From a virus: a stretch of DNA of 42,797 bases. Location of the stretch: IMG/VR virus record IMGVR_UViG_3300045988_033265, positions 1-42,797 of that record; one strand, written 5' to 3'. A program made the translations under genes and the position numbers. Below are positions 16,067 through 19,012 of the stretch, in pieces (within the stretch, counting starts at the first letter, position 1; each line of letters starts with the position of its first letter). The notes under the pieces were generated by a model. It had not been told where the DNA came from and ran no database searches. It saw only the letters and a program-made list of their open reading frames with translations.

Positions 16067-16572
16067 TGGTTTCGGACGAAGCGTTGAAAAAGCTGCAAGA
16101 GCAAATTGCGGCGTGGCCGATGACGCAGCGGTTCGTGGTGCAGCAGCTTATCGAGGACTACCGTAGGGATAGAGAAGACCTGCGCGCATACAAGAACACG
16201 GGGCTGACGCCGGAGGAGATCAAGTCGATGAAAGATGAGCACTTTAGCGGTCTGGAAATGGCGAAATTGCACAGCGCTCTTATGGAACTCAAAAAATATC
16301 AAGAAGCCGACAAGGACGGGCGGCTGGTGGTGCTGCCAGTAAAGCCAGTGCTCACCCCTACAATATCAAGTATGCTGTATATAATTGAAGATGGAGAAAT
16401 CTACGAAGATTCGCTGTATGAGGGAATTGTTGGAATGTCGGAGCGTGGGGAAATGAATGTAATTTACGGCACCATTGATGCGTTGAGCTTCGAACAAAAT
16501 GATATCGGCAAGACCGTATTCCTCACCAGCGAGGAGGCGAAGAAAGCATTGGAGGCGATGAAAGATGGATGA
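16066..16572 (+). CDS. Hypothetical protein
   Basis: SD AGGAGG lies 7 nt before ATG 16066; GTG 16063 is an alternative start. Confidence 0.6.
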   Translation: MVSDEALKKLQEQIAAWPMTQRFVVQQLIEDYRRDREDLRAYKNTGLTPEEIKSMKDEHFSGLEMAKLHSALMELKKYQEADKDGRLVVLPVKPVLTPTISSMLYIIEDGEIYEDSLYEGIVGMSERGEMNVIYGTIDALSFEQNDIGKTVFLTSEEAKKALEAMKDG

Positions 16573-16741
16573 ATTAAAACCCTGCCCGTTTTGTGGCGCA
16601 GACAATAAGCCTATGGGCGCAATCATGAGGACGGCAAACCGTGGGGAGTGGAAGCACTGGTACAACGGCTGCGTTCTTTCCGGTTTTGTAATTAAGGCGG
16701 ACAAAATCGAAGCGTGGAACAGGAGGGCTGACAATGGCTGA
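16565..16741 (+). CDS. Lar-family restriction-alleviation-like protein (58 aa, below the track cutoff)
   Basis: MDELKPCPFCGADNKP...EAWNRRA, i.e. the CPFCG and WNRR hallmarks. SD GGAGG lies 9 nt upstream. Confidence 0.6.
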   Translation: MDELKPCPFCGADNKPMGAIMRTANRGEWKHWYNGCVLSGFVIKADKIEAWNRRADNG

Positions 16742-17210
16742 ATACATCAAGCGTGAAGCGGCGCTTGCACTGCTTCGACCGGACGACCCGAATGACGAAC
16801 GATGTGCCGTTACGGTCGCGACAGCTAAAAGGCTTATCCGACACGCCTTGACCGCCGCGCCCGCTGCTGATGTTGCGCCGGTGGTGCACGCGCGGTGGAT
16901 AAAAGGTTCATCGAACCCGTACTGCCCTGAATGCTTTGTAGAGTGTAGGGACGAAACTCCATTCTGTCCAAACTGTGGCGCAAAGATGGACGGAGGTGAC
17001 AGCAATGCGCTTGACGAAATTCGACACGCTCCCACCGTTGATGACGTGGCCGTGACGCGGTGCAAGGGCTGCAAGCACTATCGCAATCACCCGAACGGGC
17101 TGTGCTATTTGCACACCGAACCGAAAGAGACCAAATGTGGGTATTCCGGCGATGCGGTGTGTGTAGAGCCGGACGATTTTTGCAGCTACGGAGAACCGAA
17201 GGAGGTGTAA
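16734..17210 (+). CDS. Hypothetical zinc-ribbon protein
   Basis: SD AGGAGGG. CPEC...CPNC. Confidence 0.6.
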   Translation: MAEYIKREAALALLRPDDPNDERCAVTVATAKRLIRHALTAAPAADVAPVVHARWIKGSSNPYCPECFVECRDETPFCPNCGAKMDGGDSNALDEIRHAPTVDDVAVTRCKGCKHYRNHPNGLCYLHTEPKETKCGYSGDAVCVEPDDFCSYGEPKEV

Positions 17211-17213
17211 CAA

Positions 17214-17285
17214 ATGGAGCTCTTTTTTGCTGGCGTGTTCTGCGGTGCATTTTGCATATTAGCTGTGGCATGGTTGATGGACTAA
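17214..17285 (+). CDS. Possible 23-aa hydrophobic peptide
   Basis: SD GGAGGTG lies 9 nt before the ATG. Translation MELFFAGVFCGAFCILAVAWLMD. Confidence 0.3.
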   Translation: MELFFAGVFCGAFCILAVAWLMD

Positions 17286-17321
17286 AATCACTTTATTGAT
17301 TGTTTGTGAGGATCTTATGAA

Positions 17322-17624
17322 ATGAGGAACGAGTTTTATAGCAACTGTTTTATAGAAATGCTGAAGGCAAAATTGCGAAATCCAGCTATAAAGGTCATGT
17401 ACCTGCCAGCGTTTCTAAATGAAGTGTCGTGCCCGCATTGGATGTGGATTGACGATGATGGAGAACATGACTTCCATTTTAATGGCCGCTTACCGTGGTG
17501 GAAATGGTTATGGCATAGGGGCTATATACGGACAGTCCACAGGGGATGTTACAAAGGCTGTATCGACCAGATGATTGAGAAGAAATATTACTCATGGTGG
17601 AACATGAGAGCTAAAAATGGCTGA
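17322..17624 (+). CDS. Hypothetical Trp-rich protein (AT-richer than the flanks)
   Basis: 100-aa ORF with a weak SD. Confidence 0.5.
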   Translation: MRNEFYSNCFIEMLKAKLRNPAIKVMYLPAFLNEVSCPHWMWIDDDGEHDFHFNGRLPWWKWLWHRGYIRTVHRGCYKGCIDQMIEKKYYSWWNMRAKNG

Positions 17625-17650
17625 CGGGCGAAAAAGAAAGGAATTTTGCT

Positions 17651-18118
17651 ATGAAAAAGTACATCGGAACGAAACTCATCGAGGCGGCACCGGCTATCCG
17701 CAAGGGCGGCAAAGTTTACGAGAAGACCCAGCCCATTCCGAGAAGTATGGAGCATGAGGAAGACGGCTACAAAGTCCGCTACTCTGACGGATACGAATCT
17801 TTCAGCCCGAAGCAGGTTTTTGAAGAGGCGTATCGACCGACTGACGGGCTGAGCTTTGGACTTGCTATCGAGGCAGTGAAGAAGGGCATGAAGATCGCAC
17901 GCCGCGGCTGGAACGGTAAGAACCAGTACGTCGAGCTTGCGGAGCGTATCAGCTACGAGAACGCTGCGCACGAGTTAATTAACGCCAAGCACGAGGCCAT
18001 CGGAAACAAAGCGCTTGCCTTTGTCGGCACATCCGGCGTACAGCTCGGCTGGCTGGCCTCGCAGGCCGACATGCTGGCTGATGACTGGGTGATCGTCGGG
18101 GAAGCGGTGACCGAATGA
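17651..18118 (+). CDS. DUF2829-domain protein (Tad2-like candidate Thoeris anti-defence sponge) with an N-terminal extension
   Basis: FGLAIEAVKKGMKIARRGWNGKNQYVEL ... GWLASQADMLADDWVIV matches the DUF2829 pattern (from memory). Confidence 0.7.
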   Translation: MKKYIGTKLIEAAPAIRKGGKVYEKTQPIPRSMEHEEDGYKVRYSDGYESFSPKQVFEEAYRPTDGLSFGLAIEAVKKGMKIARRGWNGKNQYVELAERISYENAAHELINAKHEAIGNKALAFVGTSGVQLGWLASQADMLADDWVIVGEAVTE

Positions 18119-18507
18119 GCATTAACATCAAGAAGTACACCAAAGGCCAGATGGCAAAGATGGTGGAGGAAACGCAGGCAGAAGTGCAGGAATTAAAGCG
18201 GGTAAATGCCGCCCTGACCGAGCAGGTCAGCCAGATGAACGGCGAGGCCATCAACAAGGCAAATGTGATCGCAAAGCAGAAAGCAGACGCGGACTGCCTG
18301 CGAAACAATCTCGATGCCACCGAGGCGGCACTTGGGCGGGCGAATGCGGAGTTGACGTATTCTGTCGCTGAAAAGAACGCGCTGCGGAATGACGTAACTA
18401 AAATGGTGGGTAGAGCCGCTCTTGAGTGTGGGCGCACTGCCTACGCAGAAACCCATCCGTGGCGCAACCTGTGGGCGTGGCTCAAGAGAAAACTGGTCCG
18501 TGAGTAA
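18115..18507 (+). CDS. Hypothetical coiled-coil protein
   Basis: ATGA overlap with the previous gene. Confidence 0.55.
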   Translation: MSINIKKYTKGQMAKMVEETQAEVQELKRVNAALTEQVSQMNGEAINKANVIAKQKADADCLRNNLDATEAALGRANAELTYSVAEKNALRNDVTKMVGRAALECGRTAYAETHPWRNLWAWLKRKLVRE

Positions 18508-18703
18508 GTGGGTCGTTATTACCCGTGGTGATGATGGCACGCCGTGGCCAGATTGGGCGTTTCGGCTCATGTGCCCAGCGTGTAAACTAAAAACAAGCAC
18601 TGAGAGCAATTTTTGCCCTTATTGTGGAAAGGATATGCGCGATGAATCAAAAGGACATCGACCGGCAACTACGAGCATTGGACGAGGCGAAAATCACGAT
18701 TGA
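18500..18703 (+). CDS. Small zinc-ribbon protein
   Basis: GTG start overlapping the upstream stop. CPAC...CPYC. Confidence 0.45.
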   Translation: MSKWVVITRGDDGTPWPDWAFRLMCPACKLKTSTESNFCPYCGKDMRDESKGHRPATTSIGRGENHD

Positions 18704-18797
18704 AGCGCTGTGGGCGAAGTTGAAGTCTCGTGACGATTTGGTCAATCAGCTGGAAACGGAAAACTACAGGTTGAGACGCAAGGCGGGTGAGGAATGA
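18642..18797 (+). CDS. 51-aa coiled-coil protein (below the track cutoff)
   Basis: SD GAAAGGA lies 8 nt before the ATG. ATGA overlap with the XRE gene. Confidence 0.45.
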   Translation: MNQKDIDRQLRALDEAKITIEALWAKLKSRDDLVNQLETENYRLRRKAGEE

Positions 18798-19012
18798 GCA
18801 CGTTTTCTGATCGGCTACGTAGATTGCGCGAACGTCAACAGCTAAAACGCTGCGTGTTATCTGAGCTGTGCGGGCTGAACCGCAACACGATCAAGCGCTA
18901 TGAGATGGGGACGCAGAAACCGTCAATGGACGCGCTGATAAACATCGCTGACTATTTCGGAGTGTCGATTGATTATTTGCTCGGGCGGTCGGACTACCCA
19001 AAAAGTTTATAA
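18794..19012 (+). CDS. XRE-family HTH regulator
   Basis: Segments LKRCVLSELCGLNRNTIKRYEMG and LINIADYFGVSIDYLLG. Confidence 0.8.
   Translation: MSTFSDRLRRLRERQQLKRCVLSELCGLNRNTIKRYEMGTQKPSMDALINIADYFGVSIDYLLGRSDYPKSL

Follow-up and report, generated by a model that had tools for sequence, protein, structure and literature searches.

When a run of short, overlapping phage genes ends in a gene for a small helix-turn-helix (HTH) protein, is that protein an anti-CRISPR-associated (Aca) regulator closing an anti-defence operon, or does it serve another purpose? Here we consider this question at positions 16565-19012 of IMG/VR virus record IMGVR_UViG_3300045988_033265 (positions 1 to 42,797, the whole stretch of 42,797 nucleotides (nt) that was analysed and that we call the window), which is a temperate, Firmicute-style siphophage or prophage of a very abundant human-gut lineage. 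A sequence-only reading had taken the small genes there for a probable anti-defence island and the terminal XRE-type HTH gene, named g10 below, for an Aca-type regulator. Our analysis favours a different account, to which we assign a probability of roughly 60%: the genes form the mosaic tail of an early operon, and g10 would encode a regulator of the switch from early to late transcription.

Gene content and mosaicism of the cluster

Nine open reading frames (ORFs) on the plus strand fill 16565-19012, at spacings of -62 to +36 nt. The kinds of gene named beforehand were all recovered (a Lar-like gene, two zinc ribbons, a 23-codon ORF, a Trp-rich gene, a Tad2-like gene, two coiled coils and an XRE HTH), and the genes are real and tightly packed, although they number nine, or ten with g1, rather than about 11. 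The cluster had also been placed immediately before the late region, which is incorrect: an 843-nt non-coding stretch holding a palindrome, a hairpin terminator, a tRNA-Trp gene and a conserved 59-nt element parts it from terS (19856). The genes are as follows, with protein lengths in amino acids (aa).

16063-16572, plus strand: g1, 169 aa, backbone gene (phrog_38832, E 1e-12; 52/80 loci, 32-96% identity)
16565-16741, plus strand: g2, 58 aa, CPFCG...WNRR, Lar/RalR-like zinc ribbon (weak match)
16734-17210, plus strand: g3, 158 aa, double zinc ribbon, backbone gene (phrog_22543; DZR and Zn_Ribbon_1 matches below cut-off)
17214-17285, plus strand: g4, 23 aa, hydrophobic (strong GGAGGTG ribosome-binding site)
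17237-17623, plus strand: inserted cassette with g5 (no class A nucleotide match; GC fraction 0.42)
17322-17624, plus strand: g5, 100 aa, 8 Trp (GC fraction 0.43 against 0.52 regionally)
17651-18118, plus strand: g6, 155 aa, two-domain Tad2/AcrIIA7-family (DUF2829) protein (PF11195, 71.9 bits, E 6e-20)
18115-18507, plus strand: g7, 130 aa, coiled coil, backbone gene
18500-18703, plus strand: g8, 67 aa, zinc ribbon (Zn_ribbon_3, 27.9 bits)
18642-18797, plus strand: g9, 51 aa, helical/coiled coil (62-nt overlap with g8)
18794-19012, plus strand: g10, 72 aa, XRE/Cro-C1-type HTH, last early gene (HTH_3, E 1.5e-11)
19856-20227, plus strand: terS, small terminase subunit, first late gene (Terminase_2, E 3e-23)
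20220-21458, plus strand: large terminase subunit gene

Far upstream, at 5543-5571, lies a P_R-like plus-strand promoter (TTGACA-17-TATAAT) that matches the consensus at 12/12 positions. Between it and the end of g10 (5571-19012), a scan that was based on consensus only found no consensus plus-strand promoter and no strong terminator, and intergenic gaps are ≤36 nt throughout 15108-19012. The small genes of 16565-19012 appear to be the promoter-distal tail of one ~13-kb early rightward operon, which would run from the promoter at 5543-5571 to the hairpin at 19072-19103.

Relatives were collected by scanning IMG/VR with the g10 HTH, which returned at least 80 contigs at 96-97% identity; these 80 loci form the class A comparison set, in which gene variability was scored over the 4.5 kb upstream of the HTH by a presence/absence matrix and gene-order strings. 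Across them, 106 protein families alternate upstream of the conserved HTH, and full nucleotide conservation is confined to ~18794-19150. A variable gene set beside a conserved anchor, which the sequence-only reading had proposed looking for, is thus what the comparison found.

Not everything in the segment is exchangeable. Its backbone consists of g1, g3 (68/80 loci, often in two or three copies and in several paralogous forms), a 54-aa family-2 gene that is found in 69/80 loci and not in the window, and g7, which is present in 80/80 class A loci as well as in loci with RinA-like regulators (39-79% identity, 110-194 aa, conserved N- and C-termini; 3370 clusters in the family). Optional elements include a Lar-like gene, an ASCH-like gene, several zinc-ribbon and membrane proteins, and Tad2, which lies upstream of the HTH in ~8/80 loci. 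The g2 gene is either missing from relatives or 37-95% identical, g5 is found in 0/80 loci, and the g8+g9 pair occurs in ~15-17/80 loci at 92-100% identity, the place between g7 and the HTH being taken by this pair, by family 12 (18 loci) or by nothing. Representatives of the other optional families match Mom (27.6 bits against a cut-off of 27.1), C5 DNA methylase and PAPS-reductase domains. Among the four small genes singled out earlier as anti-defence candidates, g5 and g8-g9 are true cassettes and g7 is a lineage-wide backbone gene.

At several gene boundaries (16500-16560, 16700-16750, 17150-17220 and 18100-18200), stretches of 40-100 nt are kept in many relatives with different flanking genes, and these look like the recombination junctions of other mosaic phages.

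Judged from gene content and order, the cluster is a recombination-prone accessory segment in which the backbone genes g1, g3 and g7 are interspersed with exchangeable cassettes. As a kind it is already known, a mosaic accessory stretch of an early operon, here holding one new Tad2/DUF2829 member and candidate cassettes. Comparable segments are the lambda nin region and the pre-rinA region of staphylococcal phages: nin-type segments also carry small overlapping exchangeable genes between the replication genes and the late regulator, with short conserved junctions, but they consist of other gene families, the present one having a Tad2-family gene and, in relatives, DNA-modification genes.

The alternative that survives best concerns the content of this segment. 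It may be a mosaic accessory region of the ordinary sort, whose genes serve mixed functions (recombination, DNA modification, membrane proteins) with no particular bias towards anti-defence, and in which g6 is an incidental passenger. Most of its families are without a known function, those that are common encode ASCH-like proteins, zinc ribbons and a transmembrane protein, g1, g3 and g7 are backbone genes, and in other phages Tad2 is also found at another junction, after the 59-nt element. Against this, Tad2, Lar-like, Mom-like, C5-methylase and PAPS-reductase-like genes recur in the segment among relatives, which suggests some enrichment for counter-defence and DNA-modification functions. 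We hold a segment wholly without such a bias to be rather unlikely, while any anti-defence activity of the cluster genes remains putative.

Regulators in the slot before the late genes

The non-coding stretch between g10 and terS contains the following features.

19027-19046: perfect palindrome AACTCACTTATAAGTGAGTT, proposed g10 operator, 15 nt past the g10 stop codon
19060-19070, plus strand: extended -10-like motif TATG-G-GAGAAT, without a -35 hexamer (same offset in four HTH classes)
19072-19103, plus strand: terminator hairpin with a 12-bp stem and a T-rich tail (terminator scan)
19104-19285, plus strand: conserved non-coding leader (≥80% nucleotide identity in 53-81 of 81 class A loci; kept in RinA-like loci)
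19286-19362, plus strand: tRNA-Trp(CCA) (ARAGORN)
19775-19833, plus strand: 59-nt element GCCCTTCGGGGCGGGTAAAGTCTGCTATGTAAGGCCAAGGGGTGGGGGCTGGTAGCAAA, directly before the ribosome-binding site of terS

Repression by Aca proteins acts on a dedicated promoter by way of inverted repeats, located at most ~150 bp ahead of the first acr gene (PMC9410906). In the tightly packed early operon described above, the consensus scan shows no such promoter ≤150 bp upstream of the small genes, the nearest plus-strand consensus promoter being 11 kb upstream, and no inverted-repeat operator was found in a promoter of the operon: the sole HTH-linked palindrome is single and 3' of g10. The Tad2-like g6 does lie three genes upstream of the HTH, yet ~72/80 close relatives have no Tad2, and no recognised anti-defence gene, in that position. 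Like Aca1-Aca13 of the acr-aca operons, g10 is a small HTH at the 3' end of small variable genes; unlike theirs, with operators upstream in a dedicated promoter and autorepression, its palindrome lies downstream and faces the late region. Most likely, g10 does not autoregulate the small-gene cluster.

Which regulators occupy this position elsewhere was determined in a sample free of the bias of an HTH search, by anchoring loci on the 59-nt element instead. This element is nearly invariant (78/80 HTH-anchored loci and 119 further contigs; more than 200 related loci altogether), and 90 of the loci in the anchored sample had enough upstream sequence. An HTH homolog lies 280-1400 nt upstream in 67/90, and these homologs fall into four classes, A to D. 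The other 23 loci have no XRE HTH; in 19/23 the same slot holds one of two other proteins, which we call X1 (14 loci) and X2 (5 loci). X1 belongs to phrog_36 ('transcriptional regulator') and matches the RinA family model TIGR01636 at E 1e-4, below cut-off; X2 belongs to phrog_248 ('transcriptional activator'). RinA-family proteins are described as activating a promoter just upstream of terS (PMC3152322).

The g10 gene itself is the last early gene and is followed by the non-coding leader and terS, that is, it lies directly upstream of the late, terminase-containing operon, in the slot that RinA, ArpU and Alt activators hold in Firmicute phages. The X1 and X2 sister phages, moreover, share the -10 motif, the hairpin and the leader with this lineage. 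No homology of g10 to RinA, ArpU, Mor or C was found: it matches XRE/HTH_3-type models only, so it would be an analogue of the late-gene activators and not a member of their families. Its best NCBIfam match is the RstR repressor family, below cut-off, and its distant homologs (33-45%) are in unrelated contexts. It further differs from RinA and ArpU in that its putative promoter would lie ~780 nt upstream of terS, with the leader, the tRNA slot and the 59-nt element between them.

Classes B-D have no g7; a 67-aa beta-rich protein (MKLGQVVRARFKSIP...; phrog_27610) there overlaps the HTH start codon instead. A role of g7 as specific partner of the class A HTH was ruled out, since g7 also precedes the RinA-like X1.

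Palindrome, promoter-like motif and terminator

The palindrome is unique in the window at up to 3 mismatches, a search there for further copies or half-sites, as of an upstream operator, having found none, and its 18-nt core is invariant in 80/80 loci while the flanking bases vary. Each HTH class has a palindrome of its own, located directly 3' of the HTH stop codon.

Class A: 93-98% identity to g10, recognition helix NRNTI, palindrome ACTCACTTATAAGTGAGT
Class B: 57-64% identity to g10, recognition helix HRDAV, palindrome TTCCCCTTTTAAGGGGAA
Class C: 48-50% identity to g10, recognition helix SRDAL, palindrome ATTCCTCCATTTGGAGGAAT
Class D: 38-39% identity to g10, recognition helix GHDTL, palindrome TTGCCCCCAATTCGGGGCAA

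A scripted check showed that the distance from the palindrome centre to the first base of the motif TRTG-n-NANAAT is exactly 28.5 nt in all four classes. Within class A the TG, A(-11), A(-8) and T(-7) of this motif are invariant and positions -13 and -10 vary, and the corresponding sequence in the RinA-like sister loci is TATGaGATAAT. Because its centre lies 28.5 nt before the -10 hexamer, the dyad would be at ~-40.5 of an extended -10 promoter; at the level of sequence, it overlaps the -35 region, where this promoter shows no hexamer. This is the geometry of class-II activation, as by lambda cI at P_RM from a site at ~-42, and lambda cI shares the Cro/C1-type HTH fold. A different sigma-70 promoter, built around the palindrome with the flanking TTGCAA hexamers as -35 elements, was rejected by hand analysis for its wrong spacing.

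Mu C is described as acting at late promoters that have a -10 but no typical -35 element (PMC2582627). The proposed arrangement thus resembles both lambda cI at P_RM and Mu Mor and C in having a dyad centred at ~-40.5 or -41.5 and an (extended) -10 without a -35. It differs from them in that they have no start site nested in the terminator hairpin of the preceding operon.

In classes A-D, 0-2 nt separate the hexamer from the start of the hairpin, which is followed by a T-rich tail. The free energy of the hairpin in the window is -22.6 kcal/mol for a read-through RNA, and -12.4 or -7.7 kcal/mol if the RNA starts at 19077 or 19078. Classes C and D have a common -10, hairpin and leader and differ in HTH and palindrome, and the same is true of class A compared with the RinA-like loci. 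Because regulator and palindrome differ where the -10, hairpin and leader are shared, regulator and palindrome would have been exchanged as one unit.

Since the Aca reading fails, the palindrome keeps a fixed register and RinA-like regulators take the same slot, g10 is most likely an early-to-late switch regulator, and probably an activator rather than a repressor. In the mechanism that we propose, a g10 dimer would bind the palindrome at 19027-19046, its candidate operator, ~40.5 nt upstream of the predicted start, and from this class-II position would switch on the extended -10 promoter at 19060-19070 that lacks a -35. Rightward transcription would then enter the leader, the tRNA gene and the late genes (terminase, head, tail). 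The predicted start, ~19077, falls within the 5' arm of the early terminator hairpin; as a consequence, early read-through transcripts would stop there and transcripts begun at the late promoter would escape.

Leader, tRNA slot and 59-nt element

Inverted repeats are nested within the leader, ~180 nt long, at 19181-19239. After the leader comes the tRNA slot, whose content varies: relatives have Gln(TTG), Thr(CGT), Gly(CCC), Ala(GGC), Met(CAT), Ile or none, and these variable tRNA genes need a promoter.

The 59-nt element is present whichever regulator class lies upstream, variation being confined to the loop of its 5' hairpin. It always adjoins the ribosome-binding site of the gene that comes first, and at least six different genes take that place: terS of three types, a gene with a ParB-like N-terminus, Tad2 and HNH. 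The ParB-like gene, assigned by eye from the sequence, encodes 396 aa and is first after the element in ~11 loci. Neither a promoter consensus nor an Rfam family was found in the element, and it is too invariant for a covariation test. Across the window, an Rfam scan returned no family at gathering score, and a permissive scan of 18950-19900 gave the tRNA and chance matches only.

Alternatives to a late-switch regulator

Several points weigh against the account given above. From -40, repression by a dimer is as feasible as activation, the palindromes might function in RNA, as hairpins, and every palindrome adjoins its HTH gene, so co-inheritance alone could pair the two. In classes B-D the NANAAT tract can pair in part with the T-rich tail and may be a piece of the terminator rather than of a promoter, while in X2 loci the hairpin starts at ~+1, so that a start inside the hairpin is not universal. 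The invariant 59-nt element could be the real late control site. As for the proposed island, what stands is one well-supported Tad2/AcrIIA7-family gene, g6; family-level support for anti-defence is confined to that gene, g2 being below threshold and comparable to a Rac prophage protein, Lar, that is also classed as the DNase toxin RalR. The activity of the DUF2829 family is itself disputed between a Thoeris/CBASS signal sponge and an anti-Cas9 activity with tracrRNA as target (PMC13133391).

Some of these points are shared by two further explanations. The palindrome-bound HTH might act on elongating or terminating RNA polymerase, as a lambda Q-like antiterminator or a roadblock, with the late genes expressed by read-through past 19072-19103. 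The fixed spacing between palindrome and hairpin in all classes and the hairpin and T-rich tail that directly follow are consistent with this, as are the X2 loci, in which a transcript from the -10 would include the whole hairpin; the order of regulator, site, terminator and late genes is also that of lambda Q-qut-tR'. The conserved TG, A(-11) and T(-7), however, correspond to the requirements of a -10 element and would have no role under antitermination, and we know of no XRE-type protein that antiterminates, which leads us to consider this explanation improbable.

We give as little credence to the second, which has two forms: g10 would repress the promoter formed by palindrome and -10, keeping the tRNA and late genes shut off until another signal arrives, or the palindromes would work in RNA, as hairpins by which the early mRNA is stabilised at its 3' end, with an unrelated HTH target. 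A site overlapping the -35 region is a classic repressor position too, the best NCBIfam match of g10 noted above is to a repressor family, and the palindrome as RNA folds at -11 kcal/mol. Repression of the late operon by a product of the early operon, on the other hand, makes no obvious switch; an exact 28.5-nt register in four unrelated palindromes would be needless for an RNA 3' hairpin, and the exchange of regulator and palindrome as a unit also speaks against it.

Least well survives an anti-defence operon damped by a terminal Aca-type autorepressor, which we regard as very improbable: a small conserved HTH beside small variable neighbours that include a Tad2/AcrIIA7-family gene is the guilt-by-association pattern used for acr discovery (PMC7648647), and relatives have DNA-modification genes in the same region, but besides the missing upstream promoter and inverted repeat, the single class-specific palindrome 3' of the HTH gene and the many relatives with no recognised anti-defence gene upstream, class D phages have Tad2 on the downstream side of the HTH and RinA-like regulators fill the slot in sister phages.

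The Tad2-like protein g6

We found g6 to be a well-supported member of the Tad2/AcrIIA7 anti-defence family on the basis of sequence, predicted fold and contact residues. It comprises a beta-rich N-terminal domain (residues 1-65) and a Tad2 domain (66-150), the latter matching PF11195 over residues 68-149 with a score far above the 25-bit cut-off (71.9 bits, as listed above). Sequence matches in the PDB, at E ~1e-10, were SptTad2, HgmTad2/AcrIIA7, SPO1 Tad2 (gp34.65) and ModTad2. The Foldseek comparison that had been suggested for the small proteins bore this out: with an AlphaFold2 (AF2) model of predicted local distance difference test (pLDDT) score 75, the top 24 PDB hits were all Tad2/AcrIIA7 entries at probability 1.0, with TM-scores, normalised to target length, of 0.53-0.74.

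In SPO1 Tad2, glycocyclic ADP-ribose (gcADPR) is contacted by W25, N26, W73 and D79, plus T65, S76 and T78 (bioRxiv 10.1101/2023.05.01.538930). The g6 counterparts of W25/N26/W73/D79/T65/S76 are W87/N88/W134/D140/T127/S137, which are invariant in 28 close homologs; g6 departs from SPO1 Tad2 at T78, which is Ala, and in not keeping the water-coordinating D67 and H71. Given the conserved contact residues, g6 would most likely sequester an immune signalling nucleotide such as gcADPR.

What sets g6 apart from Tad2/AcrIIA7, with which its C-terminal domain agrees in sequence, in fold and in the gcADPR-contact residues W/N/W/D, is its extra 65-aa beta-rich N-terminal domain (predicted strands E2-5, E9-18, E21-24, E36-43 and E49-53). 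In the PDB, by sequence and by fold, this domain has no solved relative, the matches being spurious ones to designed repeat proteins. An N-terminal two-helix head precedes the DUF2829 core of pdAcrIIA7 (PMC13133391), from which the beta-rich domain of g6 is different. The two-domain form of Tad2 is extremely widespread and comprises at least 7956 clusters.

In 8 anchored loci, mostly of class D, a two-domain Tad2 is the first gene 3' of the 59-nt element and thus downstream of the HTH; in six class D loci it is 81-88% identical to g6 and lies just before the packaging genes. Because it is also placed after the 59-nt element, Tad2 would be a mobile cassette with several junctions that is not bound to an HTH-closed operon.

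The inserted gene g5 and its neighbours g2 and g4

Nucleotide homology with all class A relatives breaks at ~17236 and resumes at 17624, which delimits a 387-nt insertion. By this comparison g5 is a recently inserted gene, and the insertion is unique among class A relatives. Over its first ~8 codons, up to nucleotide ~17236, g4 shares homology with the beginning of the relatives' family 11, and there the homology ends; since the insertion truncates the 80-aa membrane-protein gene of the relatives, g4 is probably a 5' remnant of that gene.

Homologs of g5 occur in other gut phages, and the family comprises 231 clusters at 50% identity, with conserved S-N-C, E12, K17, H39, W42, D50-F51 and G67. 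Family searches gave no match. The Foldseek comparison proposed for g5 was run on an AF2 model of pLDDT 85 and found no significant neighbour in the PDB (best, an M48 deubiquitinase at E 0.75); in BFVD the sole significant viral neighbour was an uncharacterised Pseudomonas phage protein. Weak, non-significant matches to herpesvirus tegument deubiquitinases (UL36) recurred and are a lead only. An assignment as a papain-like or NlpC/P60 enzyme, which the Cys/His/Asp set and the helix-then-sheet topology would fit, was set aside for want of significant structural support in the PDB and BFVD. Longer relatives of g5 carry no informative partner domain, except for one P-loop fusion.

Homologs 69-73% identical to g5 lie on two jumbo-phage-like contigs of 214-220 kb, among long runs of small unknown genes, one of them near an IS605 OrfB/TnpB gene. 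A link between the tRNA-Trp and the Trp-rich g5 was ruled out, as relatives with tRNA-Trp have no g5.

The g2 protein is weakly Lar/RalR-like. It has the size and the CxxC zinc-ribbon pattern of the Rac prophage restriction alleviation protein Lar and aligns with TIGR03655 over its full length (1-55 of 55; E 6e-6), but its scores are under every curated cut-off (26.4 bits against 39.6 for TIGR03655; 21.6 bits against 28.6 for Pfam Lar, PF14354); it also matches phrog_599 at E 2e-7.

Early operon and setting

Upstream of the early genes the window contains the lysogeny region and a second promoter.

1966-5616, minus strand: integrase and lysogeny genes
5698-5670, minus strand: divergent promoter (11/12 consensus match)
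From 5735, plus strand: cro-like HTH gene

This promoter and the P_R-like one at 5543-5571 form a divergent sigma-70-type pair between the lysogeny genes and the cro-like HTH, a probable prophage genetic switch. The rightward order after the cro-like HTH is DNA methylase, 3D-domain protein, YqaJ exonuclease, RecT, SSB, DnaC-like, DUF1064, methyltransferase and DUF6948.

Two ORFs of the early region stand apart. That at 15398-16066 encodes a protein whose conserved C-terminal domain is preceded by a long Gly-Ser/Gly-Tyr repeat (GYGYGSGSGDGPGYGSGSGYGSG...); the length of the repeat differs among relatives, and no family was found for the protein. In the ORF at 13391-14515, the first ~150 codons are Arg-rich and non-coding in appearance, and the conserved protein (MKVLVACEESQ...) probably begins near 13847, which would leave the stretch ~13360-13847 poorly explained.

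Discussion

In this locus a phage lineage that is common in the human gut keeps exchangeable accessory genes, and g5 and g8-g9 are worth screening. The locus also holds a caution for guilt-by-association searches, in that a conserved HTH that closes a series of small variable genes need not be an Aca protein: here the putative operator of the HTH faces the other way and its gene fills the slot of a late regulator.

The more interesting by-product may be a predicted module of regulator, operator, promoter and terminator in four specificity classes. In its fullest form, the proposal joins a compact, modular XRE activator, a private palindrome at ~-40.5, an extended -10 and a start nested in the 5' arm of a terminator, where one hairpin would stop early and pass late transcripts; there would be at least four orthogonal classes, interchangeable with RinA-like regulators, and an invariant 59-nt element gating the first late gene. 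Separately, g5 may found a new family of phage effectors that would be minimal Cys-His-Asp hydrolase-like proteins. That all of this should hold together is a tentative idea, one that we would bet against, if not heavily. Should the module prove real, gut Firmicute phages would offer four activator/promoter pairs that are orthogonal by nature, and there would be a simple means of predicting late promoters across thousands of uncultured phage genomes.

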